Source: Gemmatimonadaceae bacterium (lineage in GTDB: Bacteria; Gemmatimonadota; Gemmatimonadetes; Gemmatimonadales; Gemmatimonadaceae). From it: a stretch of 64,000 bases of DNA. Of the stretch, positions 4,664 to 64,000 are shown one piece after another. Position 1 is the stretch's first letter, and the number at the start of each line of letters is the position of its first letter. The notes under the pieces are model-generated. The model was not told where the DNA came from. It worked only from the letters and a program-made list of their open reading frames with translations, and made no database searches. Where the stretch lies: the NCBI GenBank assembly GCA_036741775.1, contig DAINRQ010000030.1, positions 477 through 64,476 on the forward strand, given 5' to 3'. The position numbers and the translations under genes were made by a program.

Positions 4664-5809
4664 CTACCGACCCGCGCCGACCGTTCGGCCGAGCGACTTC
4701 GTCTTGCGCTCGAGGCCCGCGATGAGCGAGTCGAACGACTTCTGGAAGCTCGCGAGCCCGTCCACGAGCAGCTTGTCGGTGACGTCGCCAAAGTCGATAC
4801 CCACTTCGGCCAACTGCGCCATGACGCGCTCCGCCTCGCGGACGTTCTCGTCGACCGTGCGCGCGACCACGCCGTGATCGGTGAAGGCGTCGATGGTCGC
4901 GGGCGGCATGGTGTTCACCGTGTCGGGCCCGATGAGCTCCTCCACGTACACGACATCGCGATAGGCGGGATTCTTCGTGCTCGTGCTCGCCCACAGCGGC
5001 CGTTGGAGACGCGCCCCGCGCGCGGCGAGGGCCGCCCATCGCTCGCTCGCGAACATCTCGCGAAAGAGTCGGTACGCGAGCTTCGCGTTCGCGATCGCCG
5101 CGCGCCCCTTGAGCGCCATTGCGCGATCCTTTGCCGAGGCATCGCCCTTCGCGGCGATGGCGTCCAGCCGCTTGTCCACCTCGGTATCCACGCGACTCAC
5201 GAAGAAGCTCGCGACCGACGCCAGCCCCGAGATGTCATGCCCTGCCGCGAGACGGTCCTCGAGCCCGCCCATGTACGCCTCGATGACCCGGCGATGGGCG
5301 TCGATGGAGAAGAGCAGCGTGATGTTGACGTTGACGCCGTCCGCGATGAGCGCGCGCACGGCCTTCGCGCCCTCGATCGTGCCCGGGATCTTGACCATCA
5401 CGTTAGGCCGCCCGACGGTGGCCCAGAGCCGCTTCGCCTCCGCGATCGAGGCCTCCGCGTCGTTCGACACCCCGGGAGAAACCTCGATCGACACGAAGCC
5501 GTCGCCGCCCTGCTCTGCCCGGTAGACATCGGCAAAGATGTCACAGGCGGTTCGCACGTCCGTCGTCTCGACGAGCTCGAATAAGTCCCACGCCGTGAGC
5601 CCCGGCGGCGCGGCGACGATCTGCTCGTCGTACTCCGTACCCTCGGCCAGGGCCTTCTCGAAGATGGTCGGATTGGACGTCATCCCTGTAAGCGCGCTGT
5701 CGCGGATCATGCGAGCGAGCTCGCCGTTGCGCAGGATCGTCCGGTCAATGAAGTCCAGCCAGACCGACTGGCCAGCCTCGTGTAGCGCGTGGAGCCGATT
5801 GGTCGTCAT
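4664..5809 (-). CDS. tal: transaldolase
   Basis: GQSVWLDFIDR, MTSNPTIFEKA and VMVKIPGT regions. Trimmed to ATG 5809 (MTTNRLHAL...). Confidence 0.9.
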   Translation of the reverse strand: MTTNRLHALHEAGQSVWLDFIDRTILRNGELARMIRDSALTGMTSNPTIFEKALAEGTEYDEQIVAAPPGLTAWDLFELVETTDVRTACDIFADVYRAEQGGDGFVSIEVSPGVSNDAEASIAEAKRLWATVGRPNVMVKIPGTIEGAKAVRALIADGVNVNITLLFSIDAHRRVIEAYMGGLEDRLAAGHDISGLASVASFFVSRVDTEVDKRLDAIAAKGDASAKDRAMALKGRAAIANAKLAYRLFREMFASERWAALAARGARLQRPLWASTSTKNPAYRDVVYVEELIGPDTVNTMPPATIDAFTDHGVVARTVDENVREAERVMAQLAEVGIDFGDVTDKLLVDGLASFQKSFDSLIAGLERKTKSLGRTVGAGR

Positions 5810-5987
5810 TCCAGGTGTGCGCTCGAAGTGGTGTGCCTGACAACGGTCAGCCCGCCGGAATGCCGGGGACCTACGCCGAAACATATCACCTGCCGGCGAG
5901 GGGCATAGCCGCTACGCGTGTGCTCGCCTCGAGGCCCTCGAAGCCCTCGACACCGGTCGTGCAGCCACCTCGTACCGACGAAACGAC

Positions 5988-7958
5988 ATGATGGCGGTCC
6001 GCAGGGGCGTTCGCGCCACACTCCGCTGGTGGCGCTCCCTTTCGCTCGCCGCTCAGCTCGTTCTCACGAACGTCGGTGTCTTCGTGATCTGGGCCGTCAT
6101 GACCCAGCAGATTGTCGCGTTCCAGGACGGACGCCGCGAAGACGCCGAGATGGCTGCCGTCCGGGCGGGCTCCGCGGTTCTTGTGGCTGCACAGATCGGG
6201 CCGGCTCTCATCAATCTCGAGAGCGGAGAGCGCGGTTTCGCGGTCACCGGCGACTCCGCTTTTCTCAACGCGTACCAGCTCGGTCGCGGCCAGCTCGACA
6301 TCGCGCTCGACACGCTGGCCAAGCTCGCGGTCGGGAACGAGGAGCTCCGGCTCGCCACGTCTCGCCTCGACGAAACGACGCGCCTCTGGACGCACGCGGC
6401 GACGATTCACATGGCAGCGCAACCGTCCAACGGCGCCGCGTCACCACGTACGCGCACGATGGGACGTCGCGTCGCGGCGCTCATGGACAGCTCGCGTGCG
6501 GCATCCGCCGCCATCGAGCGGCTCACGCGGGTTCAGTCCGAGCTCCGGGCCGCTGAAGCGACGGTGCAACTCGAGCTGGATGCCCGGGAGACGCTCCTCG
6601 TCCGCTTCCTGCTGGTCGCGTTGATCGTTCTCGCCACGGTGGTGAGCCTCCGTCGCGTCACGGGCACGCTGGACGCAATCGTGTTCGATGCGCGCGCGCT
6701 CGCGGCCGGCGACCACCGGGCAGCGACGCGCTCCACCGCGGGCGGGAGCCGCGAGCTGGCGCAGCTCGGCGCGGCGTTCGGAACGCTCGCCGTCGCGGTG
6801 GCCGAGCGCGAAGATGGTCTGCGCGACGACATTCGCCAGCTCAAGGAAGTCGAACGACTCAAGACCGAGTTCGTCTCGACAGTCAGCCACGAGCTGCGAA
6901 CGCCGCTCACGGCGATTCGGGGCGCGCTCGGTCTCGTCCTCGCCGGCACCGCGGGGCCTGTCGCACAAAAGACGCGGGATCTCATGCAGATCGCGTTGCA
7001 AAACACGGAGCGCCTCATCCGGCTGATCAACGACATCCTGGATGTCGAGCGCATCGAGTCGGGGCACCTCGTAGTGCGACGCGAGCCGTGCGAGCTCGCG
7101 GACATCCTGCGCACGACGGTCGACTCACTTCGCACCGTCGCGATGGAAGCACAGGTCACGCTCGCACTCGACGGCGAGCGAAGCGCAGTCGTGACCGGGG
7201 ACCCGGATCGCCTCGTGCAGGTCTTCATGAACCTCATCTCGAACGCGGTGCGGTTCTCGCCTCGGGGCGAGACGGTGACCGTGTCCCTTCGCACCACGCC
7301 GACCAGCGCGGCGGTGTTCGTAACCGACCGCGGTCCGGGAATCCCTCTGGAGTTCCGCCGTCGCATCTTTGGCAAGTTCCAGCAGGCCGATCCGGCCGGG
7401 GCGGCAGGGGGCGCGGGGCTCGGACTCGCCATCGTCCGCGCGATCGTCGAACGCCACGGCGGCTCGATCCGGTTCGACAGCGCGCCCGGGCACGGCACGA
7501 CGTTCATTACCGAGCTCCCCTACACTGCTCCCGCGACATCGACGGCCACGGGCCACGGCGAACACCGCCTTCTTGTCCTCGACGACGACCGCGACATGTT
7601 GAGCGTACTGCGGTCGCTCTGCGAGCCGCTGGGTGCCGTCACCGCGGTCGGTTCGACTGACGAGGCATGGCGCGCGCTCACGAGCGCCGCGTATGACGCG
7701 ATCGTCATCGACCCGAACGCGCCGGAGTCACCGGGCATCGCGCTCGTGCGACGTATTCGCGAGCTCCCCGGCTACGCCGATGTGCCTGTACTCGTGTTCT
7801 CCTCGCGGGAATTCTCGGACAGCGAGCTGTCGGGGGTAACGCTGGCGCCGTCGCACGCATTCGTGAAAACGCGCGACCGTGAGCAGGACCTGCTGCTTCG
7901 CCTCCGAGCCGTGCTCGCGGTACGCCGCCCCCGGCGACCGGTGGCGGTTCCGGCCTAA
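5988..7958 (+). CDS. hybrid sensor histidine kinase (TM, CHASE3-like, HAMP, HisKA, HATPase, C-terminal REC)
   Basis: LESGERGFAVTGDSAFLNAY (CHASE3-like), H-box [13 protein letters not shown]-boxes DRGPGIP and GLGLAIV, C-terminal LLVLDDDRDM...VIDPNAP receiver. Confidence 0.85.
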   Translation: MMAVRRGVRATLRWWRSLSLAAQLVLTNVGVFVIWAVMTQQIVAFQDGRREDAEMAAVRAGSAVLVAAQIGPALINLESGERGFAVTGDSAFLNAYQLGRGQLDIALDTLAKLAVGNEELRLATSRLDETTRLWTHAATIHMAAQPSNGAASPRTRTMGRRVAALMDSSRAASAAIERLTRVQSELRAAEATVQLELDARETLLVRFLLVALIVLATVVSLRRVTGTLDAIVFDARALAAGDHRAATRSTAGGSRELAQLGAAFGTLAVAVAEREDGLRDDIRQLKEVERLKTEFVSTVSHELRTPLTAIRGALGLVLAGTAGPVAQKTRDLMQIALQNTERLIRLINDILDVERIESGHLVVRREPCELADILRTTVDSLRTVAMEAQVTLALDGERSAVVTGDPDRLVQVFMNLISNAVRFSPRGETVTVSLRTTPTSAAVFVTDRGPGIPLEFRRRIFGKFQQADPAGAAGGAGLGLAIVRAIVERHGGSIRFDSAPGHGTTFITELPYTAPATSTATGHGEHRLLVLDDDRDMLSVLRSLCEPLGAVTAVGSTDEAWRALTSAAYDAIVIDPNAPESPGIALVRRIRELPGYADVPVLVFSSREFSDSELSGVTLAPSHAFVKTRDREQDLLLRLRAVLAVRRPRRPVAVPA

Positions 7959-7975: not shown

Positions 7976-9925
7976 TCAGCGCGTAGCGGCGCGCTCTCGC
8001 CACATCGGGATTTTGCCCGACAGGATGCGGAAGCTCACCGGCTTCGCGACGTAGTCGAGCGCCCCGGCGCGTAACGCGCGTATCTGGTCGCCCTCGGTGC
8101 CGTTGCCGGTAATGAACACGACGGCGAACACGTCGGGCCGCTCTGCACGTAGGCGCTCGTGGACGGCGTGGCCGTCGAGGCCCGGGAGATCGACGTCGAG
8201 CAGTACGAGCGGACGGCGACCATCAGCGCGAAACGAGAGAAGCGCCTCGAGGGCCGGCACACCGTTGTTGAAAGCGCGGAAGGTGAGGCCGGCGGACCGG
8301 AGCACGTACTGCACCATGTCGGACAGCGCCGGGTCGTCCTCGATGAGGATGATGTCGGGCGCGAGCCCGGCCTCGTCACGGCGCCATCGCCTAACGAACG
8401 ATGCTCGGTCCTGGCGTGACATCTCGATCGCCTCGTCGGCACCGCGGCGGAGCGCGATGGGGTCGGCGCCGACATCGGTCGAATCCACCACACCGCAGCG
8501 CCACGCCGGCGCGCCCTCCGAGCGACCGAACACGAGCGCTTCGAACAACGATTCCGCGAGCTCCGCATCGCCATCGAGCACGGCCATGAGCGAGACGCCG
8601 TCGTGATATCCGACGACGCTCGCCGAGCTCGCGACCGCGTTCGCGATGCGCTGGGTCTCACGGAGCCACCCCGTCGCCGCGTCGCCGAGCAGATCATCGA
8701 CGTCCGGTCGCACGATCACCATCGCGACGGAGCGCTGTGCCTCCGCGGCGACCGCCGTGAATCGCGCGACGTCGCTCGCCGTCCGCGGTGGGAGCGGCAA
8801 CCCCGTACCCGGATGACGGCCCTCGCTGAGCCGCACGACACGCTGGCGCTCCAGGTGACGTGCGATGCACGCGCGCAGCTCCTGCGCCGCGATGGGCTTC
8901 GCGAGAAAATCATCCACGCCAGCGCGACGGGCCTGCTCCTTCGTGCGCTCCTCCGTGTCGGCGGAGATGAGCACGATGGGGAGGTCCCGGTATGCCGGCA
9001 GGGTGCGCAACTCGCGCGCGAGGTCGATCCCGGAGATCTCCCCCATCCGCACGTCCATGACGAGCAGCGAGGGGGCCGTTGCGGCGAGCTGCTCGTGCAG
9101 CGCGTGCGGATGGTCGCACGTCATGATGCGAACGCCTTCGCTCTCGAGCAGGAACTGAACGATCGTCAGGATCGAGGGGTCGTCGTCGAGCACGAGGATC
9201 GTGGCGCCGGCGGTGGAGCTGCCGAGCGACAGGCGGTCCGCGATGTCGAACAGCGTTCCAAGCTCGTCACTGATGTCGACGGTCGCGATGCCGGCGGCCG
9301 CGGCGGCTGCGGCGTCGTCCAGCGTCGCACCCTGGGCGAGCGCGATCAGCGGGACGTTCGCGCCGGAACTGAGCTCCCGCAGATCGGCGACCTGTTCGAC
9401 CGATACGACGACGACGTGCGGGGCAAGCTCGCGAAGCCCAGCGGCCGTGAGATCGCCCGCCCGAGCCGCCGTGAGCTGATAGCCTCGCAGCGCGGCCTCC
9501 GACCGGAGCGCGCGCGCGTAATTCGGCGCGACATCCACGAGAAGCATCCGGCGACGCGACGCGGGAACATGCCCGATCGCTGCCTCGGCCGACATCGCGA
9601 GGCGGAGCGCACTGACGAAATGCCCGATGATGGTGGCGCGCTGGGTCCGCTCGAGCGTGGGGTCGTTCTCCCAGTCGCCAACGCGCCGCTCGAGCTTGGC
9701 GGCGAGACGGCTCGCTTCCACGAAGCCATAGCTCCCCGCGGTTCCGTGCACGCGATGGAGCTCGCGACGCAACGCCGCGACCGTGTCCGGCGACGTCGGC
9801 TCGGTTCCGAGCTGACGCGCCAGATCTTCGAGCATCGTGATTGTTCCGGCGCTCGTTTCGCGAAAGCGCTCGCGTAACGTCCGCAGCGCATCGCTCGCCC
9901 GGGCGACGGTTTGGGCGCTCGCCAT
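7976..9925 (-). CDS. multidomain phosphorelay protein (HPt plus two REC domains, with a central region of unclear family)
   Basis: HPt motif HRVHGTAGSYGF. REC 1: ILVLDDDPS...MDVRMGEISG...AKP. REC 2: IILIEDDPA...LDVDLPGLDG...AKP. Trimmed to ATG 9925 (MASAQTV...). Confidence 0.8.
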   Translation of the reverse strand: MASAQTVARASDALRTLRERFRETSAGTITMLEDLARQLGTEPTSPDTVAALRRELHRVHGTAGSYGFVEASRLAAKLERRVGDWENDPTLERTQRATIIGHFVSALRLAMSAEAAIGHVPASRRRMLLVDVAPNYARALRSEAALRGYQLTAARAGDLTAAGLRELAPHVVVVSVEQVADLRELSSGANVPLIALAQGATLDDAAAAAAAGIATVDISDELGTLFDIADRLSLGSSTAGATILVLDDDPSILTIVQFLLESEGVRIMTCDHPHALHEQLAATAPSLLVMDVRMGEISGIDLARELRTLPAYRDLPIVLISADTEERTKEQARRAGVDDFLAKPIAAQELRACIARHLERQRVVRLSEGRHPGTGLPLPPRTASDVARFTAVAAEAQRSVAMVIVRPDVDDLLGDAATGWLRETQRIANAVASSASVVGYHDGVSLMAVLDGDAELAESLFEALVFGRSEGAPAWRCGVVDSTDVGADPIALRRGADEAIEMSRQDRASFVRRWRRDEAGLAPDIILIEDDPALSDMVQYVLRSAGLTFRAFNNGVPALEALLSFRADGRRPLVLLDVDLPGLDGHAVHERLRAERPDVFAVVFITGNGTEGDQIRALRAGALDYVAKPVSFRILSGKIPMWRERAATR

Positions 9926-10617: not shown

Positions 10618-10638
10618 ACCTAACGAGCCCGCCTAACG
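10618..10638. other. two direct copies of the abundant octamer (ACCTAACG, GCCTAACG) 13 nt apart
   Basis: aaCCTAACGagcccGCCTAACGg. The second copy supplies the TAG stop (10635..10633) of the GAF/PAS kinase. See the octamer finding. Confidence 0.9.
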
Positions 10639-12942
10639 GCCAACTACCGAACCAGGGGACTCCGTCAAACCCGACTCGTTCGGAGCCGCAAGGCGGACTG
10701 GCAGCCACGCGGTGAAGGTCGTGCCGACGCCGAAGCTGCTCTCTACCTCCACGCTCCCGCCGAGCCGCTCGAGGAGCTTCCTCGTGATGCTGAGGCCGAG
10801 CCCCGTCCCGCCGAACTCGCGCGTACGCGACTGGTCGATTTGCCGGAAGTCCTCCCAGATCGCGGCGAGGTGCTCGCCCTTGATGCCGATCCCGCTGTCG
10901 CTCACCGCAATGCACACCTGGTCCCCCGTGCGGGTCGCGTTCAGGCGCACCCACCCCGTATGGGTGAATTTGACGGCATTCGAGAGGAGGTTGAGGAGGA
11001 TCTGCTTCAGCTTCGTGCGGTCGGTGTAGACGAACAGGCGGTCGTCATCCACCTGGTATGTCGCCTCGAGCCGTTTTTTCCGGACCATCGGCTCGAGCTG
11101 CTGCGCCACCTCGGTCACGACGTCCGCGAGCGGGATCTCCTCGAGGTGGAGCGGCATCTTCCCGGCCTCGATCTTCGCGAGGTCGAGGATGTCGTCGATG
11201 AGGGCCTGCAGATGCTGCCCGGCAGCGCGGATCCGCTCCAGGCTGTCGATCTGCTGGGTCGTGACGTCGCCGAACAGGCGGTCGAGGAGCAGCGACGTGT
11301 GCCCGAGCACGGCGTTGAGTGGCGTGCGCAGCTCGTGCGACATGCTCGCGAGAAACTCGGACTTGAGCCGGTTCGCGCGCGCGAGTTCCTGCGACTGCCA
11401 TTGCAGCTTGAGGTTCTGCGCCTCGAGGTCCGCCGTGGCGGCGCGGATGCGCTCCTCGAGCTGCGCCGAGAACTTCTTGAGCTCCTCGTACAGCCGCTCG
11501 TTCTCGACCTGTTTCGTCAGGTCGTGCACGACCGACACGATGACGCTCGGCTCGCCGTGCTCGTTGATGATCTTGCCCGACACGACCTCGACTGGGAGCT
11601 CGCGCCCGCTGGACGGGTCGGTGAGCGTCATCCGCGACCGACGCGAGATGGCGGTGCCTAACGTGAACTCCGAGATGAAGGACGTGAACTTCGTGTCGTT
11701 GCCACGGATGGCCTGGATGGCACCGTAGTTTCGTTTGCCACCCTCGCGCACCTGGAACAGCCGCTCTGCCTCCTCGTTCATCATGATGATGTTCGACTGG
11801 TCGTCAGTCACGAGGATGGGGTCGGCGACGTTCTCCAGAATGAGGTTGAGGCGATCGCGCTCGCGCGTGGCTTCGAATTCGGCGAGTCGCACGCGCTGCA
11901 TCTGGCGCTCGAGCTCGTGGCCGGCACGGCGGAGGTCCGTCACGTCTCGCAGCACCGAGAGTACCGCCCCCGCCCCCTGGGCCTCGCCGCCGAGCGGGTG
12001 CGCCAGCACCTCGAACAGCAGGTCGGTGCCCTCGCCCGGGTCGACGAGGTTCAACTCGCGCGGCCCGCTCTGGAGCCCGCCGGTCATCACCGCGCGCGCG
12101 AGGTACGACGTGAACAGCAGGTTATTGACCTCCACGGCGCGGCGGCGCCCTTCGGAGTCCGACTCGCGCGTGTTGAGTAGCCGCTCCGCGCGCGCGTTCT
12201 GGACGATGATGTCGTTCGCGGCGTTCGTGATGACGATGGGGTCGGGCAGCGAGTCGATGATGCTCGTTAGGCGATCGCGCTCCTTCGTCGCCCGGTCCGC
12301 GGTCTGGCGGACCGCGGTCGCCATTCCCATGCGCGCCAGAATGGGCCCGGCAAACATCGCGATGCGTGCCAGCGCTGCGACCACCTCCGGGTCCGCGTCG
12401 CCCTCGATCACGGCCACCCCGGCGGGCGCCTGGCCGAACCACTCCGTGTTGCGTGCCGGGCGCGCCCCGAACGTGAGCCGCAACGGACCCATGAGGTCCA
12501 TCGCGCGCGCGAGCGGAAGGACGGGCGGGCCGGTGCGGTCGTCACCGCGCGGCAGCGGGAGCGCGGTCCAGTGGCGGAATGCCAGCCGCGGGTCACGAGT
12601 CGAATCCGGCCCCGCGACGATCGGGTGGAGCGACAACGCCGACACCACGATGGGGTGCGACAGGTCGCTCACCGACAGCGTCGGAATGCCACGCCCGTCG
12701 AACCCGACGAGCGCGACGACACCGAGCGACTCCATCGCCGGGTCGAGCAGACGAACGAACCCGCGGCTCGAGCCGGACAGCTCCCCGAGCCGCGACAGCA
12801 GGAACGCGGCCGACGACGCGAGGTCGGGTGCCTCGGCGAGTGTGGCGAGCAGCTCGTCGAGGTCCGTCGCACCGCGCGGCGCCGCTTCCGCGTGCGTCAG
12901 ATCACGGACCGACTTGGTCAAGACGCCGGCGTAGCTCGGCAT
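10633..12942 (-). CDS. sensor histidine kinase with long GAF/PAS-type N-terminal region
   Basis: H-box [16 protein letters not shown]; [15 protein letters not shown] and GTGLGLSI boxes. ATG 12942 overlaps the gvpA 3' end by 41 nt, so the start is somewhat uncertain (in-frame TTG at 12921). Confidence 0.85.
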
Positions 12943-17612: not shown

Positions 17613-17914
17613 TCGTCGCTGTCGGTCTCCCGAGCGACGCGCACGGGGCCGGCCGCCGTAGCCATCCCGAGCCGCGCGCGCCACTCGCGGACCTCGCGGA
17701 GTCGCTGCATGAGTGCGGCCTCGCGACGTGTGTACTCCGCGTCGTCGATGTCGCCGAGCTCGAGCAGCATCTGCAGCTCCATGAGCTCCTGCTTCACCGG
17801 CGCGTCATCCACGAGCTCCTCCTCGACCACGCGCTGGACCTTGCCTAACGACCAGCGGATGCCGGCGACGGGACCGGCGATGGGAAAGAACAGCAGCTTG
17901 GTCAGGAGGCCCAT
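17609..17914 (-). CDS. gvpG: gas vesicle protein GvpG
   Basis: MGLLTKLLFFPIAGPVAGIRWSLGKVQRVVEEEL...LQMLLELGDIDDAEYTRREAALMQRL fits the GvpG pattern. Confidence 0.8.
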   Translation of the reverse strand: MGLLTKLLFFPIAGPVAGIRWSLGKVQRVVEEELVDDAPVKQELMELQMLLELGDIDDAEYTRREAALMQRLREVREWRARLGMATAAGPVRVARETDSDE

Positions 17915-22112: not shown

Positions 22113-22363
22113 CATCACGAATCTCGGCGAGGTCGTGTGTTTCCACGCGACCGGAGATTACAGCAGTCTCACGCACTGTCATTCCCACGCCCGCGCGCAG
22201 CCTCCCACCGCCGCCTAACGCGGACCCAACATACAAACCGCAGTACGACAACACGTTAGTAGCCAACGACCGCGCCAGCCTGCCAGATACCGCGCCTCGG
22301 CGACCCGGGTCCGACTACTCGAGCGCAAAGCGCCCAGCCATCGAACCATCGCCTGGTTTGCCT

Positions 22364-31812: not shown

Positions 31813-31822
31813 GTCATTCCCG

Positions 31823-49443: not shown

Positions 49444-50738
49444 CGTGCGCCGCGGAGCCGTCGGGCTACCCACTCGAGCAGCAGTGGTCCGACGACGAGC
49501 AGGAACAGGATTCGTGTAATGGCAGCTGCATTACGCGGCTCCGCCGGAGCAACGTCGAGCGACGACGGCGCGCCTAACGCTGAATAGAGTGCCGCGAGCG
49601 GTGCAGGGTCGACGACGGCGCTCATCGGCGGCGACACGGGGACGAGTGGTGCGTATGCGACCGACGAGACGAGACGCGACCACCACTCGCGGTGCGCGCG
49701 AACCGCCTCGTCCCCTCCGCCCATGCGCCAGCGCCAGGTCTCGTCATACCCAACCTGAACGACGCGGCCTGCGGCGACGCGGCGCGCCGCGACGACCGGC
49801 GTGTCATCACGCGCCTCGAGCACGACCGCGTCCGCGCGAGCTGACGCCACCGGGAACGCGCCGAGGCCGCCGCGCGGTGTGGCGCCGCCGATCGCGCCCG
49901 CGACGCCCGCGATTCGCCGGCCGACGCCTCCCGGCGCCACCGCCGCAAGCGACGGGAGACGAGCCGCGCCGCCAGCGAGCACGACCCCACCGCCGTCTCG
50001 CGCATAACGAGCAATGGCCCCAGCCCACGAGGCCGCCGTGCTGTCGAGGACGACGACGGCCGAGTACTGCGCCGTGTCGATCGGCGCGAGCACGCCTTGC
50101 GTCACATCAACGCCGGGCGCGACGCGGAGTCGCGCGGCGACACGCCATCCGCGCTCCTCGAGCGCCGCGATGGTGAACTTCGGTTCCCACCCGGCTGCCC
50201 CGAGCACGAGCACCGGGCGAAGCACGACGCTGTCGCGCGTCGTCGTCCGCGCCACGAACGTCGAACCGCGCGCACGCACGTCACCAGCCACGACGCCGAG
50301 CTCGAACTCGACGTTGCCGCCTTCGGGGAGGGTGTCGATCATTCCGGCGGCATCGATGAGCGCGACTGGCTCCCCGGTGTGCGACGCCACGCGCACCCGC
50401 GTCGTGCCGTACGGGTCCGCGGCGGGCTCGGCCACCATCGCCGACGGCGTGAGGGGTCGCGACGTCGACCAGCGCATCGTCGTTCCTGCTCGCGCGAGCG
50501 CGCGCATCCAGTCTCGCGTCATCGGGTCAGGCGCCGCATCGAACACGACGTGCGCGTCCGCGGGCCTGCTGGACGTCCATGCCGCGAGGGCCGCGCCGAC
50601 GTCGCGCGCGGCGACGGCGGTGTGTGTTTGAGACGCAGGGCGAACCGCGCGCCAGAGCAAGACCGCCAGCGCCGCGAGCGCTATACCGCGGAGGACGAGC
50701 TCCGCCGCCACCCGCGCGCGTTCAACGCGTGAGCGCAT
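49440..50738 (-). CDS. hypothetical membrane-anchored protein (N- and C-terminal TM helices)
   Basis: High GC3 frame inside the MoxR-type operon. No family recognised. Confidence 0.6.
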   Translation of the reverse strand: MRSRVERARVAAELVLRGIALAALAVLLWRAVRPASQTHTAVAARDVGAALAAWTSSRPADAHVVFDAAPDPMTRDWMRALARAGTTMRWSTSRPLTPSAMVAEPAADPYGTTRVRVASHTGEPVALIDAAGMIDTLPEGGNVEFELGVVAGDVRARGSTFVARTTTRDSVVLRPVLVLGAAGWEPKFTIAALEERGWRVAARLRVAPGVDVTQGVLAPIDTAQYSAVVVLDSTAASWAGAIARYARDGGGVVLAGGAARLPSLAAVAPGGVGRRIAGVAGAIGGATPRGGLGAFPVASARADAVVLEARDDTPVVAARRVAAGRVVQVGYDETWRWRMGGGDEAVRAHREWWSRLVSSVAYAPLVPVSPPMSAVVDPAPLAALYSALGAPSSLDVAPAEPRNAAAITRILFLLVVGPLLLEWVARRLRGAR

Positions 50739-53423: not shown

Positions 53424-54735
53424 GAGACTCTCCCCGTCGCAGCAACAATTCCCCGACGGCCAGAGCGAACGCGATCCCGAGCAACCAGGCGGCGAGGCGC
53501 GGCGCATCACCGGGCTCAGTATCGCGGTCCAGCACAGGTGCTCGTGCGCCACTGGGCGCGGCAGGAAGTACGCGGTCGACGACGCTGTCAGGCGCCACCG
53601 CCCCCGCGTTGCTGCCACATCGCTCCGCCATGCGTCGAGCGAAGTGGCGGAATGCCGGTGTCAGTGCGAGATCGCCGACCGTCGGCACCGGAACGGCAAC
53701 TGAACGCACGCAGCCGCTGCCTAACGGGTTCTCCGTCGCCGCCGTTGAGCCGTCACCCCAGTACGCAATCGCGCGGCCGGCCGGAGGGTCGAACGCGCGG
53801 TCGAACGGCGCAACGACGGTCGCCGCGGTCGAGCGGCCAAACCCCTCCGATGCGCCGCCCGCTACGACGGAGAAGGCAGTGTCTGGATCAGGACGCGCAT
53901 CCCAACCTGTGGCTGGTGGTACCGGCCACGCGACGAGCGTCCCCCCTTCCCGCACCCACGCACTGTCTGCCGGCGTCACGCCGTCGCGCCGCACGCGAAC
54001 CGTCGCGCCGCCGACCACAGGTCCAACGAGCGAGAGCGCGGCGGCAACCGGGTCACCGGCACTCGCGCGGACCTCCGGGCGCACCGACGCGAGCGTATCA
54101 CTCCGCACCGAGCCCGCCCGGATGACCCGCACCGAACCAGGCCATTCGTCTCGAATCGCGGCGGTCGCCGCGTCGATCTCATCGAGCGTGACCGGAGAAA
54201 CGATCGCGATCTCCACCGAATCTCGCTCGCGAGCCAGCCGCTCGGCCGCCCGCAGCGCAGCAACGAGCGCGGCGGACAGTGAACCAGGTGCACCCGGTGC
54301 TCGTCCGGCGTCCCGCGGGGTCGCGATGGAGTCCGCCACGGGGCGCGCCACCTCTCGCGCCGACGAATCGAAGACCACGAGGGCGTCGCCCGGGCGGAAC
54401 ACCGCGCGCGCGGAGTCGGACACGGCCTCAGCGTCACCAGCCGAGCGGGACCGGTCGATCACGACCACGCGACCCTCGCCGCGCCGTTCGCGCGCAAAGC
54501 TGGGGCGCGCGAGCGCCAACCCCACGAGCATCACCATCGCGACGCGCACCGCCAGCAGCAGGAGGTCCGTGGGCCTGACCGCGCGCGACACGACGCGGGC
54601 GGGTCGTTCTGGAGCGAATCGCGCCGTCGGAAGCGGCGACGACGGCGGCCGGCGCCAGGCAAGCAGATGCGCCGCAACCGTCGCAATCGCGACAGCCGAC
54701 GCGATCCAGAGGAAGAACGGAGCGGCGATGCTCAC
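53410..54735 (-). CDS. BatA N-terminal double-TM domain protein (TIGR02226-like)
   Basis: MSIAAPFFLWIASAVAIATVAAHLLAWRRP...LLLLAVRVAMVMLVGLALARP. GTG start overlaps the DUF58 stop (GTGA). Confidence 0.65.
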   Translation of the reverse strand: MSIAAPFFLWIASAVAIATVAAHLLAWRRPPSSPLPTARFAPERPARVVSRAVRPTDLLLLAVRVAMVMLVGLALARPSFARERRGEGRVVVIDRSRSAGDAEAVSDSARAVFRPGDALVVFDSSAREVARPVADSIATPRDAGRAPGAPGSLSAALVAALRAAERLARERDSVEIAIVSPVTLDEIDAATAAIRDEWPGSVRVIRAGSVRSDTLASVRPEVRASAGDPVAAALSLVGPVVGGATVRVRRDGVTPADSAWVREGGTLVAWPVPPATGWDARPDPDTAFSVVAGGASEGFGRSTAATVVAPFDRAFDPPAGRAIAYWGDGSTAATENPLGSGCVRSVAVPVPTVGDLALTPAFRHFARRMAERCGSNAGAVAPDSVVDRVLPAAPSGARAPVLDRDTEPGDAPRLAAWLLGIAFALAVGELLLRRGESHATA

Positions 54736-55649
54736 CGGGATTCCCCGCGAGCGCGGGCGGCCGCCCCGGCACCGGCACCAGCCACACGCCTAACGACACG
54801 AGACGCGGGCTCCGAGGTCAGCGCCTGCGTGAAGGTGAGCCCTTCGCCACGCCAGCCACTCGCGAGCGCCTCCCGCCACGCCGCGAAGTTCGCCAGGTAC
54901 GCGGCACGAGCGTCACCCACGAACGGCCGAGCGATCGCCTCGTCCTCCGGGTCCACCGCGAGCATGGCACGCCCCGGAGGATCGAGCTCCTCCTCGGCCA
55001 CCACGTGCACCGCATGCACCTCTCCACGGGCGGCGGCGATCTCGCCCGCGCGTCTCCGCACGTCGTCCGCATCGCCGAGGAAGTCGCTGATGATGACGAC
55101 GCGCGAGCGCGCCCGCGTGCCGGCCAGCGCGGCGGTGATCGAGGCACTCCCCTCCGCGCGACTCGCGTCGAGTGCGCGCGCGATCTCCCCCACGATACCA
55201 CGTCGCGTCCGGGGCGGCAGGTGCCTGACGCCGGCGCCGCTCACGAGCAGTAAGCCCACCGGGTCACGCGCCGTGTGCGCGACCGCGGCGAGACCCACAG
55301 CAACGTCGCACGCGAGCCGCCATTTCCCGAGCGAATCAGGCGGAAACGCCATCGACGCCGTCGCATCCACGACCACGATCGTCGGGACGATCGACCGGTC
55401 CTCGGCCAGGCGGATGTAGGCGCGGTCGCTCCGTGCGAGGAGACGCCAGTCGATCCGCTTCGGATCATCGCCCTGACGATACGCGCGGTATTCGCTGAGC
55501 TCCGGCGCCGCCCCGCGCAATCGCGAGTGGTGCGCACCGGGCATGGCGCCAGCCACGGGCCGAAGCGCCGGCCACTTCACGCCACGTATCGCGTCGAGGA
55601 GCGCTCCCCGCGACTCGGCTCTCAGTGTGTCCGAGCGTCCGTCCCGCAT
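54732..55649 (-). CDS. DUF58 domain protein (vWA-like, MoxR partner)
   Basis: GAHHSRLRGAAPELSEYRAYRQGDDPKRIDWRLLAR...VVVDATASM. Confidence 0.8.
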   Translation of the reverse strand: MRDGRSDTLRAESRGALLDAIRGVKWPALRPVAGAMPGAHHSRLRGAAPELSEYRAYRQGDDPKRIDWRLLARSDRAYIRLAEDRSIVPTIVVVDATASMAFPPDSLGKWRLACDVAVGLAAVAHTARDPVGLLLVSGAGVRHLPPRTRRGIVGEIARALDASRAEGSASITAALAGTRARSRVVIISDFLGDADDVRRRAGEIAAARGEVHAVHVVAEEELDPPGRAMLAVDPEDEAIARPFVGDARAAYLANFAAWREALASGWRGEGLTFTQALTSEPASRVVRRVAGAGAGAAARARGESR

Positions 55650-55657: not shown

Positions 55658-56725
55658 CTACACGCGGATGCCGCTCGATGGCGGGTGCACGTGCTTCACG
55701 ACGGCAGCAACGATCTGCTCCGCCGTCACGCCGTCCGCATCCGCCGCGAAGTTGGGGAGCACCCGATGGCGCAACACCGGCAGCGCCACGCGACGCACGT
55801 CCTCCGGCGCAACGGCCGCCCGTCCGGACAACAGGGCGTGGGCCTTCGCGCCAAGCACGAGCGCTTGCCCCGCTCGCGGCCCCGCGCCCCAGCGCACGTA
55901 TCGCTTCACGATCTCGGGCGGTCCGCCACTCTGGCCGTTCCCGGCGCCGTCTTCCGTCGGCGGTCGCGTCGCTCGCGCCAGCGACGCCGCGTACCGCAGG
56001 ATGGGATCAGCGGCGGGCAGCTCGCGTGTGAGGCGCTGCAGCGCGCTCGTCTGACGCGCGTCCAGCACTGGCGTCAGATCCACTTCGCTCGCACCGGTGG
56101 TCGAGCGCAGAATCCCGACTTCCTCCTCCTCGTTCGGATACCCGATGCGTATGTCGAAGAGAAACCGGTCGAGCTGTGCCTCAGGCAGCGGGTACGTGCC
56201 TTCCTGCTCGATGGGGTTCTGCGTCGCCAGCACGAAGAAGGGCTCGGGCAGCCGCATGGTCTCACCAGCCGCGGTCACCCGATGCTCCTGCATTGCCTCG
56301 AGCAACGCCGCCTGCGTTCGAGGCGGCGCGCGGTTGATCTCATCGGCCAGCACGATGTTCGCGAACACGGGCCCGCGCACGAAGCGGAACGTCCGCGCCC
56401 CGGTGGCCGCGTCTTCCTCGAGCAACTCCGTCCCCGTGATGTCGCTCGGAACGAGGTCGGGGGTGAACTGGATGCGGCGGAAGTCGAGCCGCATCGACTC
56501 CGCCACCGAGCGCACCATGAGCGTCTTCGCCAGCCCGGGCACGCCGACCAGGAGCGCGTGACCGCCGGCGAGGACCGCCATCAGGATCTCCTCGAGCACG
56601 TCGTGCTGGCCGACGATGCGTCGAGCCACCTCGTTGCGCAGCCGGACGGCCGCGGCGAGCAGGGCGTCGCGCTCCGCGGGCGGCGTGGACGCGCCCGCGT
56701 TAGGCGTCGGGCGCGTGGTCGTCAG
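55658..56725 (-). CDS. MoxR-family AAA+ ATPase (N-terminus extended to a putative CTG start; first canonical start is GTG 56629)
   Basis: Walker A GVPGLAKT, Walker B LADEINR, FFVLATQNP. The 32 codons upstream of GTG 56629 (...TPPAERDALLAAAVRLRNEV-ARRIVGQ) keep 33/34 G/C third positions and encode the N-terminal helix typical of MoxR. Confidence 0.85.
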   Translation of the reverse strand: MTTTRPTPNAGASTPPAERDALLAAAVRLRNEVARRIVGQHDVLEEILMAVLAGGHALLVGVPGLAKTLMVRSVAESMRLDFRRIQFTPDLVPSDITGTELLEEDAATGARTFRFVRGPVFANIVLADEINRAPPRTQAALLEAMQEHRVTAAGETMRLPEPFFVLATQNPIEQEGTYPLPEAQLDRFLFDIRIGYPNEEEEVGILRSTTGASEVDLTPVLDARQTSALQRLTRELPAADPILRYAASLARATRPPTEDGAGNGQSGGPPEIVKRYVRWGAGPRAGQALVLGAKAHALLSGRAAVAPEDVRRVALPVLRHRVLPNFAADADGVTAEQIVAAVVKHVHPPSSGIRV

Positions 56726-61680: not shown

Positions 61681-61733
61681 GCGTTATGGTGCGGCTCGAG
61701 CCACACGCTGCCTAACGACGCTACCAGCCAGTA

Positions 61734-63254
61734 TCAGGCGGAGAGACCGTGCTCGATAGCCTCGACCAGCGGCCCGAATGACAATCCAGCAGTACCCACC
61801 CGGCGACCAAGCTCGGAGGCGAGTTCGCGCTGCCCCTCCCCGAACAGCTCGCGGACGACCCACGGGCCCGCTCGCGGGTTTCGGTACCAATCGTCGTCGA
61901 ATGTCGATACGAGCACATCCCGCAGCGCCGCCTGCAGCTGCCACGCGCGGAGGTACCGCGCGGCGTAAAAGCGGGGATCCACATCCACGAACGCGTCCGA
62001 TGGCCGGTACCGGAACAGCGTGGCCCCACTGAGGATGTCGACGTACGCATCCGGCAACGAGGACCATGACACATCGCCGCCGTACAGCCGACGCTCGTAC
62101 AGAAGCTTCGCCGCGTAGCGCCGCAGGAACTGCAGCTCCTCGAATGCCGCGGCGCGCCGGTAATCCCCGACCCGCGCCCCGCCTAACGCCGAGTAGCGGA
62201 GGAGCCACCCGGTGTCGTGCATGAGATGGTCGAAGAGCATGGCGTACCCCTCGGTGATCGAGTTGTCGCCGAGCCACCGGAACTCGAACGGGAGGTCGTC
62301 GCGCATGTACGCGAAGTGCAGCGTGTGCCCGAGCTCGTGCAGGAGCGTCCGGTAGTCGGTCGCGCCGCCGTGTGGGAGCAACACCAGGTAGACCTCGTGG
62401 GGGATGCGCACGGGCGCACAGAAGGCGCGCGACCGCTTCCCTGGCCGCTCCCCGAGGTCGAAGATCGCGCGTCCGTTCGCCGTTGGATCGATCCCCATCT
62501 CGCCAACCTGCCGTCGAACGACCGACTCCATGTCGGCCGCCGGAAAGTAGGGGTCGAACCGCGGCGCACGGAGCAGCGCGAGCGCGTCGGCCCGCGTGGC
62601 TTCGGCCGGGAGAATGCCAAGCTGCTTCCGCACCTGCTCACGATGCACCTCGGCCCACATCGCCTCGGTGTCCTTCAGGAAGCGGTCGCAGTCCGCCGCC
62701 AGGGCCTGAAGGTCGATCCCGCTCAGCGCCTCGAACGTCGCAAGGTATCCAGGCGCGATCTCGAGCGACTCGATGAGGTCGCGCTCGCGCTGGAGCCGCT
62801 CCGACCTCAACGGCGACAGTTCGCGGGTGACGAGCGCCGAGCGTGCTTCGTCGAGCGCGAGACGCTCGTTCCGGTCGGGCAGGGTGGCGAGGTCCACCGC
62901 AACGCGCTGATACGGCACCTGCCGACCATCGGCGAGCTGGACGACCGCGCTCGCTTCCCAGGCGATGATCCGCTCGTCCAGCTCCGCGAGTGTTCGCGAC
63001 GCGTGCGCCTCGACCTGCCAGTCGAGCAGCGCCCGGGCCGCGCGCCACTCCTCGGTGCCCTCGGTCGCCCCACGAAACGCGTCACGCGTCAGCTCGAGCG
63101 CGCCCGGCCCCAGCACGTGAGAGAAGCGGTCGTAGATCGGGCGCAGCTCGGCGTTAGGCTTGTGCCCGGCGAGCGCCAGATGTTGTTCGCGAGACAGCGC
63201 CTCCATGAATCGCTCGCCGTCGGTCCGGAGCGCCGTCAGCGTGAGATCGGCCAT
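61734..63254 (-). CDS. M3-family oligoendopeptidase (PepF-like)
   Basis: Zinc motif LLHELGHTLHF in a roughly 500-aa cytoplasmic protein. Confidence 0.75.
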   Translation of the reverse strand: MADLTLTALRTDGERFMEALSREQHLALAGHKPNAELRPIYDRFSHVLGPGALELTRDAFRGATEGTEEWRAARALLDWQVEAHASRTLAELDERIIAWEASAVVQLADGRQVPYQRVAVDLATLPDRNERLALDEARSALVTRELSPLRSERLQRERDLIESLEIAPGYLATFEALSGIDLQALAADCDRFLKDTEAMWAEVHREQVRKQLGILPAEATRADALALLRAPRFDPYFPAADMESVVRRQVGEMGIDPTANGRAIFDLGERPGKRSRAFCAPVRIPHEVYLVLLPHGGATDYRTLLHELGHTLHFAYMRDDLPFEFRWLGDNSITEGYAMLFDHLMHDTGWLLRYSALGGARVGDYRRAAAFEELQFLRRYAAKLLYERRLYGGDVSWSSLPDAYVDILSGATLFRYRPSDAFVDVDPRFYAARYLRAWQLQAALRDVLVSTFDDDWYRNPRAGPWVVRELFGEGQRELASELGRRVGTAGLSFGPLVEAIEHGLSA

Positions 63255-63436
63255 CAGTGCAACCTCGGGTTATCGTCGCCCGGTGTTTCGACGTCAGTAT
63301 GGAACCGCCCCGGCACCCTACGAAAAAACGAAGGGCACCGTGCGCTCGCCGGCTGCGCGTGTCCCCGTACGTCGCGCCTTCTCGCGACGGCGGCTCACTC
63401 AGGAGCCTCCCCCGCGCCGCCGCGGTGCCACGCTCG

Positions 63437-64000
63437 TTAGGCCGGCGTGATTCGCTCGCCGATGTACGCGCGCAGCTGTTCCGCCGCGACGCGGACCTGC
63501 TGCAGCGTATCGCGGTCGCGGACCGTCACCGTCCCGTCCTGCGTCGATTGCCCGTCGATCGTGATCCCGAATGGCGTCCCGACCTCATCTTGCCGGCGGT
63601 ACCGCCGCCCGATCGCGCCGCCGTCATCATAGAACACGGCGAGGTCGCGGCGCAGATCGCCGGCGACGCGCTGCGCCATCTCCGGCATCCCGTCTTTCTT
63701 CACGAGCGGGAATACACCGGCCTTGATCGGCGCGAGCGCTGGCGAAAGCGCGAGAACCGTACGCCCTTCGCTCTCGCCCGGCACCTCCTCTTCGCGATAC
63801 GCGTTCACGAGCACGGCGAGCGTCGTGCGGTCCGCCCCGACCGAAGTCTCGATGACGTATGGCACGAACCGGCGATTGTTAGGCTGATCGAAGTAATCGA
63901 GCTTCTTTCCCGAGTACTCCTGATGGCGGCCGAGGTCGTAGTCCGAGCGGTTGTGGATCCCCTCGATCTCCTGGAAGCCGAGCGATCCGCCGAAGTCGAA
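63437..64000 (-). CDS. glyQS: glycine--tRNA ligase (dimeric class II type), C-terminal part; 5' end beyond the window
   Basis: The frame stays open to 64000: ...FDFGGSLGFQEIEGIHNRSDYDLGRHQEYSGKKLDYFDQPNNRRFVPYVIETSVGADRTTLAVL..., then the anticodon-binding domain (IKAGVFPLVKKD...RYRRQDEVGTPFGITID). Confidence 0.8.
   Translation of the reverse strand, partial: FDFGGSLGFQEIEGIHNRSDYDLGRHQEYSGKKLDYFDQPNNRRFVPYVIETSVGADRTTLAVLVNAYREEEVPGESEGRTVLALSPALAPIKAGVFPLVKKDGMPEMAQRVAGDLRRDLAVFYDDGGAIGRRYRRQDEVGTPFGITIDGQSTQDGTVTVRDRDTLQQVRVAAEQLRAYIGERITPA

Follow-up and report, generated by a model that had tools for sequence, protein, structure and literature searches.

In the window (the whole stretch analysed, 64,000 nt of Gemmatimonadaceae bacterium DNA), the exact 8-mer GCCTAACG and its complement CGTTAGGC occur 28 times, 17 on the plus strand and 11 on the minus strand, against about one copy expected, and the excess over chance is real. 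This word is genome-wide, conserved in position and confined to certain lineages of Gemmatimonadaceae, where it is near saturation on every replicon examined. To judge from codon comparisons, it is imposed at the DNA level, even forcing rare codons into conserved genes. We tentatively read it as an orientation-blind double-stranded DNA recognition signal resembling USS and DUS, with DNA uptake as its probable role. The searchable literature contained no description of the word, and the preliminary description knew of none for GC-rich soil lineages.

Abundance of the word

Our recount gave the same copy numbers as the preliminary description and the same coordinates for all copies but one (49572 instead of 49573). 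Dinucleotide shuffles of the window gave a mean of 1.15 copies and a maximum of 5, and Markov models of orders 0-3 predicted 0.7-2.4. Unmasked models of orders 4-6 predicted 13.8-28.1 and seem to reach the observed number, but only since 28 of the 30-36 occurrences of each 6-7-mer sub-word belong to copies of the full word. Once these were masked in the background, orders 2-6 predicted 0.25-1.3 copies, which makes the excess about 25-100-fold; the excess first proposed was thus real, while its size (tenfold) was set too low. Within the window, one-mismatch neighbours as a class were not enriched (45 vs 41 expected), and the five variants listed earlier were all present. The edges of the word were sharp (8-9 bp) and, as reported before, the sole flank preference was a pyrimidine at -1. 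With this weak flank the consensus is written Y-GCCTAAC-G.

The excess is not limited to the window. A near-identical contig shows it again in the 9 kb that follow the end of the window, and it is also found in related metagenome-assembled genomes and on two megaplasmids of a cultured Gemmatirosa. The 1.1-Mb plasmid 1 of the type strain G. kalamazoonensis KBS708 carries 778 copies (1 per 1.42 kb) vs 4-39 expected, and the first 50 kb of plasmid 2 carry 20.

Copies in the window and their reading frames

The frame tallies given earlier, TTA-GGC (Leu-Gly) 11, CCT-AAC (Pro-Asn) 5, CTA-ACG (Leu-Thr) 3 and GTT-AGG (Val-Arg) 3, were reproduced when ambiguous ORFs were counted. TTA-GGC is read at 11656..11663 (+) in a histidine-kinase gene (10633-12951, -), where the orthologous site of locus L004 is identical; at 16887..16894 (+) in an ArsA-like ATPase gene (15696-17804, -) of the gas-vesicle cluster; at 17843..17850 (+) in gvpG (17609-17932, -), as TCG-TTA-GGC, identical in L001, L002, L004 and L005; at 23006..23013 (+) in an amidase gene (22955-24853, -), identical in L001-L004; at 33672..33679 (-) in an ABC-transporter gene (32705-34585, +); at 38207..38214 (-) in a phosphodiesterase-like gene (36466-38361, +); at 44397..44404 (+) in priA (42420-44882, -); at 52644..52651 (+) in a gene for a hypothetical 697-aa protein (51330-53423, -); at 53719..53726 (+) in a BatA-like gene (53410-54735, -), as CCG-TTA-GGC; and at 62181..62188 (+) in an M3-like peptidase gene (61734-63254, -). 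The copy 49572..49579 (+) reads GCG-TTA-GGC in ORF 49440-50744 (-), which is without a family match, so that this copy may be intergenic.

CCT-AAC is read at 5401..5408 (-) in a transaldolase gene (4664-5911, -), at 23992..23999 (-) in the amidase gene (identical in L001-L004), at 41270..41277 (+) in an S15 peptidase gene (38616-42347, +) and at 63152..63159 (-) in the M3-like peptidase gene. The copy 56698..56705 (-), once placed in a putative N-terminal extension of MoxR, is intergenic according to the genes called on contig L185, which is 99.97% identical; its neighbours there are MoxR (55658-56581) on one side and a small gene (56722-57045) on the other. CTA-ACG is found at 12265..12272 (-) in the histidine-kinase gene (identical in L004), at 51645..51652 (-) in the 697-aa gene and at 46116..46123 (-) in a region of uncertain coding status, where the copy is so read if ORF 45717-47369 (-) is real and is intergenic if not. 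GTT-AGG is found at 8389..8396 (+) in a response-regulator gene (7976-10135, -), at 26391..26398 (+) in a GH3 gene (26107-27570, -; identical in L001, L003 and L004) and at 54788..54795 (+) in a DUF58 gene (54732-55649, -).

Three genes take their stop codon from the word, as had been proposed: the histidine-kinase gene (TAG at 10633; copy 10631..10638, +), the gene 31823-32764 (-) (TAA at 31823; copy 31821..31828, -) and a class-II aminoacyl-tRNA-synthetase gene that continues past the window end (TAA at 63437; copy 63435..63442, -). The copy 27569..27576 (+) lies at the 5' boundary of the GH3 ORF, where its TAG ends the upstream reading frame, and is identical in L001-L004. Two further copies are intergenic, 22213..22220 (+) upstream of nrdJ (identical in L001) and 61710..61717 (+) just past the M3-like peptidase stop codon. 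Two decayed copies lie in nrdJ: GCCCAACG at 19943..19950 (+), read CCG-TTG-GGC, where L001-L005 have the perfect word at this codon, and GCCTGACG at 20833..20840 (+), read GTC-AGG, where L002-L005, L009 and L010 have it. The AGG of the latter is a rare codon left as a relic.

Conservation and codon cost

In genomes 79-87% identical to the window, 22 of the 23 aligned copies are unchanged, whereas arbitrary 8-mers in the same comparison are identical in only 18-36% of cases and the flanks of the conserved copies are conserved no more than background. The single exception is the copy 16887..16894, in place of which L001 has GCCGAGCG. The word is dense, at 0.2-1.5 per kb, both in the nearest relatives and in a distinct Gemmatirosa clade; 13 related loci average 0.55 per kb, and 67 other Gemmatimonadaceae loci hold 4 words in 1.01 Mb, essentially none. 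The identical 8-mer is found in clades that are split by many word-free lineages and have no sites in common. This speaks against an uptake signal, as DUS and USS diverge into dialects and none was found among the loci compared here.

A synonymous-codon shuffle that kept proteins and codon usage fixed lowered the window total from 28 to 9.7 +/- 1.2 and so abolished the majority of copies inside genes; the survivors correspond approximately to copies that it leaves wholly or partly untouched (intergenic DNA, uncalled genes, stop codons). TTA, scarce as described before, is the scarcest Leu codon in the called genes of the window (20, of which 8 lie in the word), and on the KBS708 plasmid 254 of the 357 TTA codons fall inside the word. 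The rare codons follow the word: at the invariant RPLGQ and TPLGT of NrdJ the word lineages use CCG-TTA-GGC and all 67 others CTC, CTG or CTT, and relatives without the word have CTC/CTG, not TTA/AGG, at the same invariant peptides. Even amino acids differ at word sites, with Leu in the Gemmatirosa clade vs Met in the window clade at one (M/V/I/L across relatives) and Thr in L009/L010 vs Asn in most relatives at another. Imposition at the DNA level and conserved positions agree with the earlier proposal that the DNA word itself is selected or spread. The compatible peptide sites on plasmid 1 are filled to 55% for CCT-AAC, 25% for TTA-GGC, 8% for CTA-ACG and 4.5% for GTT-AGG, an occupancy limited by cost that likens the word to USS.

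These costs bear on a rather unlikely alternative, that the word is bound by an abundant protein which recognises this sequence on double-stranded DNA and acts across the whole chromosome (for example in nucleoid organisation, segregation, or coordination of repair or replication), the word being kept by ordinary selection for coverage and not by uptake drive. The very strong conservation of each site and the sharp edges of the copies fit such a protein. With thousands of redundant sites, however, selection per site would be too weak to hold the rarest Leu codon at 25% of compatible sites or to change an amino acid, and drive explains both better than binding-site selection. Moreover, most close relatives are without the word, and we know of no nucleoid protein that has an exact 8-mer site about every 1.4-2.3 kb.

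Orientation, spacing and near-matches

The G-rich strand is mildly favoured, by 17:11 within the window and at about 55-60% of the plasmid 1 copies. Orientation relative to the gene was alike in leading-strand (63.5%) and lagging-strand genes (57.6%, P=0.23) and non-coding copies split 93:76, showing no significant replication polarity, in line with the earlier contrast to polar Chi/KOPS-type signals. Copies avoid one another within about 400-800 bp in either orientation: opposite-orientation pairs at 20-400 bp reach 0.36-0.47 of expectation and same-orientation pairs at 100-400 bp 0.54-0.67. Each orientation taken singly is nearly Poisson, whereas both combined are more even (CV 0.85; in the window CV 0.67, P=0.016). 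A single copy in any orientation per about 0.5-1 kb appears to be sufficient. On plasmid 1 the longest stretch free of the word, 10.9 kb, is the ori/par region. Such even, orientation-blind spacing with repulsion at short range would also fit the footprint or coverage of a binding protein, as would the position of this gap.

It is very unlikely that the word is a Chi-like single-stranded signal for RecBCD/AddAB, which would slow degradation, stimulate recombination and mark self DNA. Known Chi densities span a range that includes an exact 8-mer at 1 per 1.4-2.3 kb, and the slight bias to the G-rich strand is of the expected kind, but replication polarity is gone after allowing for gene strand, and repulsion between opposite orientations is at least as strong as within one, where independence is expected if the orientations serve different travel directions. 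The more than 100-fold over-representation against codon usage is far above any known Chi, and the word is missing from most of the family despite the usual conservation of recombination machinery.

We give still less credence to the word as a by-product of modification or biased repair at specific sequences, such as an m5C methyltransferase paired with a mismatch endonuclease of the Vsr kind that turns near-matches into the word, an origin of the kind proposed for cyanobacterial HIP1. The patchy, lineage-restricted spread would suit mobile restriction-modification or repair genes, and copies are kept or restored precisely in place. The published KBS708 SMRT methylome, however, reports three m6A motifs only (RGATCY, ATGCAC and CCAGN7TCA), none matching the word, though m5C is poorly detected by SMRT and may have escaped notice. 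Furthermore, the word is non-palindromic, creating a copy (CTC to TTA, for instance) can take as many as two or three substitutions, transversions among them, which single-mismatch repair would not provide, and orientation-blind repulsion is unexpected. Transition-type one-mismatch variants on plasmid 1 are enriched 2.6-6-fold, not depleted, as expected if driven sites decay.

The word as a probable uptake signal

USS and DUS are evenly spaced, balanced in orientation, placed in the least costly frames and accumulated by drive. Like the uptake signals of Haemophilus and Neisseria, our word lies far above chance in some soil Gemmatimonadaceae genomes, even at a rare-codon cost in conserved genes. 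We infer that DNA-uptake machinery may be its reader. A surface or periplasmic DNA receptor would favour word-bearing fragments, and those of conspecifics would be imported and recombined more frequently, so that word-carrying alleles would be over-transmitted (molecular drive). Decayed copies would be restored from the population, and gain would halt once the translational or protein cost exceeds the drive. Against uptake, the literature searched held no report of natural competence in any Gemmatimonadota, and our analysis identified no competence receptor. The repulsion scale (below about 0.8 kb) is short beside typical recombination tracts, and per-site conservation exceeds that expected for weak drive. 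The word showed neither DUS-like inverted-repeat terminator pairs nor USS-like AT-rich flanks. The earlier, hedged interpretation (an uptake-like or dispersed binding word) held in each testable part: the excess stayed high above the masked Markov expectation and beyond the window, and word-free relatives did not share the rare codons.

Identity with the integron core site

The word contains the canonical integron core site, which had escaped the preliminary description: GTTAGGC matches GTTRRRY and the inverse GCCTAAC matches RYYYAAC (consensus in PMC3053210, PMC12901181). This identity hints at another possible reader, which counts against uptake, and together with the KBS708 integron it is a lead of its own. 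An integron-integrase-type tyrosine recombinase is an unlikely reader; in that case IntI half-sites would saturate the genomes, for example as attG-type landing sites (cassette insertion at genomic attG sites is cited in PMC12901181) or as sites bound by an IntI/Xer-like protein that has been domesticated. The match to the R-box is exact, and universal IntI specificity would account for one word in separate clades with non-overlapping sites. By our estimate a random 8-mer includes any RYYYAAC heptamer with about 0.4% chance. The dispersed words, however, lack an L-box, a palindromic partner and flank conservation, and are thus not attC or attI sites. Their 8th base is strongly required (G 778, A 77, T 21, C 16 after the first seven on plasmid 1), whereas it varies in attC boxes. 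With an active IntI, perfect core sites in essential genes should be a hazard, not an advantage, and we know of no recombinase mechanism that multiplies its own site.

The window and the related loci showed no integron, whereas KBS708 plasmid 1 carries a complete one, with intI at 856827-857810 (TIGR02249, 423 bits). Its complete attC sites read GCCTAAC-GAATC-GTTGCAGCTGAC...CAGCTGAAC-TCCAG-C-GTTAGGC, and metagenomic attC sites adjoining IntI relatives have the same GCCTAAC/GTTAGGC boxes, which favours the integrase as reader. The conserved attC start occurs 22 times on plasmid 1, with 21 copies making up the main array (810-853 kb) and the remaining one at 881.8 kb.

Abundance of the octamer in the window and in related genomes

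There are 28 copies of the octamer GCCTAACG in the window (68% G+C) when both strands are counted, 17 of them on the + strand and 11 on the - strand. This count agrees with the preliminary description, whose coordinates all held except one (49572 instead of 49573) and whose reading-frame tallies, three stop-codon cases and five listed one-mismatch variants were correct. Dinucleotide shuffles of the window retained 1.15 copies on average and 5 at most, and Markov models of orders 0-3 predict 0.7-2.4 copies. Orders 4-6 predict about 14-28 copies, but this apparent explanation was rejected as a circular artefact, because the octamer itself accounts for 28 of the 30-36 occurrences of each 6-7-mer sub-word. 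With the octamer masked from the background, orders 2-6 predict 0.25-1.3 copies, so that the excess claimed earlier survives the higher-order check in its masked form. A synonymous-codon shuffle, which keeps protein sequences and codon usage, left 9.7 +/- 1.2 copies, roughly those that the shuffle misses or only partly touches.

To collect relatives, we used NrdJ (19439-21934, - strand) as a query and obtained 80 public-genome loci, nearly all labelled as Gemmatimonadaceae, Gemmatimonadales or Gemmatimonadota MAGs. PriA had no relevant match when it was compared with the plasmid collection by tblastn, and the leftmost gene of the window had none in an exact-protein look-up. A 97.8-kb metagenome scaffold 99.97% identical to the window (L185) carries two further copies in the 9.25 kb past its right end. 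The density is 0.45-0.98 per kb in the five closest relatives (L001-L005) and reaches 1.45 per kb in L009/L010; L007 and L008 are also dense. A separate clade of three loci (L069, L078 and L070, of which L070 carries the label Gemmatirosa sp.) has 0.23-0.49 per kb, and the remaining 67 loci have only four copies in 1.01 Mb, as many as chance would give. Plasmid 1 of the cultured type strain Gemmatirosa kalamazoonensis KBS708 (1,106,233 bp, 72.7% G+C) carries 778 copies, of which 374 are forward and 404 reverse; this corresponds to one per 1.42 kb. Markov models of orders 0-3 predict 15-39 copies there, and orders 2-3 with the octamer masked predict 4-6.5, so that the excess ranges from roughly 20-fold to over 100-fold between models. 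In plasmid 2 of the same strain, 20 copies were counted in the first 50 kb. Therefore, the octamer is present on all replicons examined within certain lineages and is limited to those lineages, and the excess extends well beyond the window.

Other hyper-abundant words were sought in the 67 word-free lineages as possible dialects. The words that ranked highest came from tandem arrays with heptamer or 13-nt units or were noise due to codon usage, and no other RYYYAAC variant was enriched anywhere in the loci checked. One exception is ACGGCTAC, dispersed in L011 and L015, close relatives without GCCTAACG, with 6-7 copies in 18-20 kb where about 0.3-0.5 are expected (in L011 at 872, 2395, 3136, 8551, 11327, 16105 and 17545). 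Its sites in the two loci mostly have the same flanking sequence. Its excess may stem from codon usage (GGC-TAC), or it may be another word specific to a lineage.

Selection or drive on the octamer as DNA

It is evident from nrdJ that rare codons are imposed by the DNA word, as the preliminary description had proposed. Word-bearing lineages with a copy at the invariant peptides RPLGQ and TPLGT all encode them with CCG-TTA-GGC, and the same sites use CTC, CTG or CTT in all 67 word-free lineages. The peptide ALVRL is encoded with GTT-AGG in the word lineages; others mostly use GTG or ATC followed by a CGN codon. Even residues vary at some sites: one copy of the Gemmatirosa clade encodes Leu where the window clade has Met (Met, Val, Ile or Leu among relatives), and one copy in L009/L010 encodes Thr where most relatives have Asn. 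Copies lost from nrdJ in the window and in L001 left relics in the form of CGTTGGGC at 19950 and GTC-AGG at 20840, the latter retaining the rare AGG codon.

Conservation between genomes leads to the same point. In L001-L005, whose genomes are 79-87% identical overall, 22 of the 23 aligned window copies are identical, compared with only 18-36% of arbitrary 8-mers in the same alignments; in L004 alone all seven aligned copies are identical (0.178^7 = about 6e-6). Hitch-hiking was rejected, since conservation in the flanks of shared words within +/-200 bp does not exceed the background; it is thus the word that is constrained. The copies also turn over: L002-L004 carry copies absent from the window, L069 and L078 have in common only two of ten aligned sites, and the window clade and the Gemmatirosa clade have no word site in common. 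The octamer is thus selected or driven as DNA.

The costlier the codons of a frame, the smaller the share of its compatible peptide sites that is occupied. The window copies fill 5 of 12 x-Pro-Asn-[VADEG] sites, 8 of 44 [SPTA]-Leu-Gly sites, 2 of 28 CTA-ACG contexts and 2 of 53 GTT-AGG contexts. On plasmid 1 the corresponding values are 154/281 (55%) for Pro-Asn, 254/1020 (25%) for Leu-Gly, 8% for CTA-ACG and 4.5% for GTT-AGG, and the two costliest frames become rarer at higher gene GC3. As many as 254 of the 357 TTA codons on this plasmid (71%) lie within the octamer, and 49 copies supply the stop codon of a gene. Tandem copies, read in the cheap Pro-Asn frame, also occur within low-complexity coding repeats of 12 or 15 nt. 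This pattern is the trade-off expected if a DNA-level benefit or drive opposes translational selection. The saturation, with half of the compatible Pro-Asn sites and most TTA codons taken, shows that a DNA-level signal here conflicts unusually strongly with translation.

The boundaries of the octamer are sharp in the window, and the only flank information is a pyrimidine at -1, in line with the preliminary description. Plasmid 1 likewise has near-zero flank information except at -1 (C 360, T 263, G 131, A 24), so that extended flanks such as the AT-tracts of Pasteurellaceae uptake signal sequences (USS) are absent from both. Position 8 on plasmid 1 is G in 778 cases, A in 77, T in 21 and C in 16; therefore, the core is GCCTAAC, and G is strongly preferred as the following base. 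Among the one-mismatch variants on this plasmid, those of the transition type are enriched 2.6-6-fold (GCCCAACG 151, GCCTGACG 132, GTCTAACG 35 and ACCTAACG 14 copies), which is consistent with decay of former copies. No conserved sequence or hairpin continues past the core, as would be seen in REP, MITE or other repeat elements.

Orientation and spacing

To place the copies relative to replication, we located the origin of plasmid 1 at about 1.027 Mb and its terminus at about 0.350 Mb by cumulative GC skew. The origin lies at the skew minimum inside the largest word-free gap (1,021,207-1,032,069; 10.9 kb), which encodes ParA-like, ParB-like and replication-initiator-like (Rep-like) ORFs and is the origin and partition module of the plasmid. 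Other long word-free gaps on plasmid 1 contain SusC/SusD-type TonB receptor pairs with GC3 of 0.96-0.98.

The orientation of the octamer tracks the gene rather than the replication fork. In leading-strand genes 63.5% of copies have CGTTAGGC on the coding strand, vs 57.6% in lagging-strand genes (P=0.23), non-coding copies are split 93:76 (P=0.22), and no strong skew in orientation switches at the origin and terminus of plasmid 1. The 17:11 split in the window is likewise explained by gene orientation. Moreover, the spacing is more even than Poisson in the window (CV 0.67, P=0.016). On plasmid 1 the CV is 0.85, only 79 gaps of 50-400 bp are observed vs 140 expected, and no gap exceeds 10.9 kb. 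Opposite-orientation pairs 20-400 bp apart reach only 0.36-0.47 of the expected number there, and same-orientation pairs 100-400 bp apart reach 0.54-0.67, while each orientation alone is near Poisson (CV 0.94 and 0.98). Because this repulsion is blind to orientation, one copy in either orientation appears to be enough per segment, and such a pattern argues for recognition of duplex DNA and against a strand-specific signal of the Chi or KOPS type.

Chi (GCTGGTGG) and KOPS/SRS do resemble the octamer as exact 8-mers dispersed through genes at kilobase-scale spacing. On the other hand, they are strand-polar with respect to replication, and opposite-orientation sites should be independent of each other, whereas the octamer is non-polar and its two orientations interfere. 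A Chi-like signal is thus very improbable, and the preliminary description rightly placed the octamer nearer to uptake sequences or a dispersed binding site than to polar signals. A relation to XerCD/dif was also rejected, as no dif-like site (ATAATRTAYATTATGT, up to 3 mismatches) was found around the terminus of plasmid 1, out to a distance of about 50 kb.

Identity with integron core sites

The octamer contains GTTAGGC/GCCTAAC, the R-box recognized by the integron integrase IntI, plus one base. Canonical integron sites have an inverse core RYYYAAC and a core GTTRRRY (PMC3053210, PMC12901181), R'' and R' respectively. Compared with integron core sites and genomic attG sites, the octamer is identical in sequence to the most canonical core site, GTTAGGC/GCCTAAC. 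Plasmid 1 (NZ_CP007129.1; loci L097 and L098) carries a complete sedentary integron (810,295-857,810 and 881,829). Its intI (856827-857810, - strand, the same strand as the array) matches TIGR02249 with 423 bits, and the attC start (GCCTAACGAATCGTTGCAGCTGAC...) is found in 22 highly similar same-oriented copies, of which 21 belong to the main array at 810-853 kb; the other lies apart, at 881.8 kb. The complete attC sites read GCCTAAC-GAATC-GTTGCAGCTGAC...CAGCTGAAC-TCCAG-C-GTTAGGC (or GTTAGAC, GTTAGCC), with the terminal sequence ...CAGCTGAACTCCAGCGTTAGGC. Boxes of GCCTAAC/GTTAGGC are also present in attC sites beside IntI relatives on unrelated metagenome contigs.

The dispersed copies were rejected as attC, attI or attG sites. 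They have no L-box, palindromic partner or adjacent intI (only the 810-853 kb array qualifies), their 8th base is far stricter than in attC sites, and they lie inside essential genes. Convergent word pairs outside the integron were similarly rejected as attC-like, the few folded pairs being generic GC-rich folds without conserved attC-like boxes. We know of no genome-wide over-representation of integron core sites or their conservation inside housekeeping genes. The match could be a coincidence of two systems that favour an AT-cored, stop-containing word, which is otherwise very rare in GC-rich DNA, and a mechanistic link between them seems improbable. Still, a reader of universal specificity would explain why separate clades use the same word. 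It is a conceivable, if unlikely, alternative that the identity is no accident, and that either the R-box serves as a genome-wide self or uptake signal or an IntI-family protein reads thousands of chromosomal half-sites. If the former were true, soil integron cassette DNA would be preferentially imported, coupling natural transformation to the cassette pool; if the latter, the integron recombination code would have a new genome-scale role. The match might connect two major pathways of horizontal gene transfer. No paper on integrons together with Gemmatimonadetes was found in the searchable literature.

Comparison with uptake sequences and possible readers

The octamer matches the uptake sequences of Pasteurellaceae (USS; AAGTGCGGT / ACAAGCGGT) and Neisseriaceae (DUS; AT-GCCGTCTGAA and dialects, read by the minor pilin ComP) in every sequence-level property testable here. 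Like USS, it is a hyper-abundant short non-palindromic word at about one per 1-2 kb, uses both orientations equally with more even spacing than random, lies mostly in genes in the least costly reading frames with changes at the DNA level, is restricted to a single lineage and has a halo of decayed variants. Like DUS, it is comparably dense, shows no strand polarity and keeps its positions between species, and it would similarly be a lineage-specific marker of self-DNA.

Three departures should be noted. First, USS has a 9-bp core with helically phased AT-rich flanks and DUS often forms inverted pairs acting as terminators, whereas the octamer is a bare 8-9-mer, such pairs are absent, and convergent pairs are depleted on plasmid 1. 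Second, DUS splits into dialects between clades, whereas the identical octamer is used in separate clades with no dialect seen, which is atypical for uptake sequences. Third, it coincides with the integron core site. Moreover, it is AT-cored in genomes of 68-73% GC and made of the rarest codons, unlike USS, and its hosts are soil Gemmatimonadaceae without reported competence. USS function was shown experimentally; the uptake role of the octamer is putative.

Taken together, we tentatively favour an orientation-blind signal for recognition of duplex DNA that would be spread by drive, most probably for DNA uptake. The main rival is a chromosome-wide DNA-binding protein as the reader of the word, which the orientation-blind spacing would also suit; we regard it as possible but rather doubtful. 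An IntI-type reader, suggested by the R-box identity, is improbable given the strict 8th base and the isolated half-sites. Modification or repair bias as the source of the word appears the least probable of these. In this respect, HIP1 of cyanobacteria (GCGATCGC) is also an extremely over-represented octamer imposed on coding sequence with a debated function, but it is palindromic and linked to methyltransferases, whereas GCCTAACG differs from its own reverse complement. The published SMRT methylome of KBS708 describes only three m6A motifs, RGATCY, ATGCAC and CCAGN7TCA, and the octamer is not among them (PMC3974934). RNA-based explanations were rejected, as the window has no Rfam family or tRNA and none overlaps any copy.

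No prior description of the octamer, nor of uptake sequences or competence in Gemmatimonadota, was found in the searchable literature. The finding is real and strong and, as far as this literature shows, undescribed. To our knowledge, genomic words of this kind, hyper-abundant and non-polar, have been described in only two bacterial families, Pasteurellaceae and Neisseriaceae, both of them host-associated Proteobacteria. The octamer would be a third, independent case in an abundant but rarely cultivated soil phylum, and would imply sequence-biased gene flow or a chromosome-wide DNA reader in soil bacteria. It would also provide a self-DNA marker for binning and for detection of horizontal transfer in Gemmatimonadaceae MAGs. 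The function of the octamer is directly testable, because the cultured KBS708 carries it at very high density.

Gene context and other repeats

The window encodes ordinary chromosomal genes: a transaldolase, two-component systems, a gas-vesicle cluster, nrdJ, priA, a peptidoglycan-recycling group and a MoxR/DUF58/BatA cluster. No competence genes were found in its 64 kb. A PF00437 ATPase gene (T2SSE; PilB/PilT-type), located at 1545-2717 of L185, about 6.5-7.7 kb past the right end of the window, is the only pilus- or competence-related gene seen nearby. The gas-vesicle cluster (13233-19090), in a soil-type Gemmatimonadaceae genome, comprises gvpA, gvpK, two gvpL/F, an ArsA-like ATPase gene and gvpG, with an additional gvpL/F paralogue at 46730-47398.

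Short intergenic tandem arrays of lineage-specific 7-8-nt repeats (AATCGGG, CTAGTCA, CTAATCA and CTGACTCA) were also observed, in the window at 10446-10460 and 61222-61236 and in related loci (L048 12166-12187 and 17342-17370, L014 15381-15450, L018 43-125, L022 9248-9536). They often consist of two inverted blocks; the unit differs between related genomes and the arrangement persists. On plasmid 1, GGACTGAAG recurs about 111 times within 11-nt tandem triplets, arranged as inverted blocks round a short spacer beside a conserved CTCCACGTACG motif (for example, 167294-167313, 183402-183495, 197572-197666 and 218307-218390), which looks like a MITE-like or regulatory family unrelated to the octamer. 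Finally, L009, the relative with the highest density of the octamer, has a 13-nt tandem repeat (GCTCTGACCCCGG/GCTCTGACCCCCA) in two mutually inverted blocks, at 4752-4880 and 5734-5825, with about 10 and 7 units.
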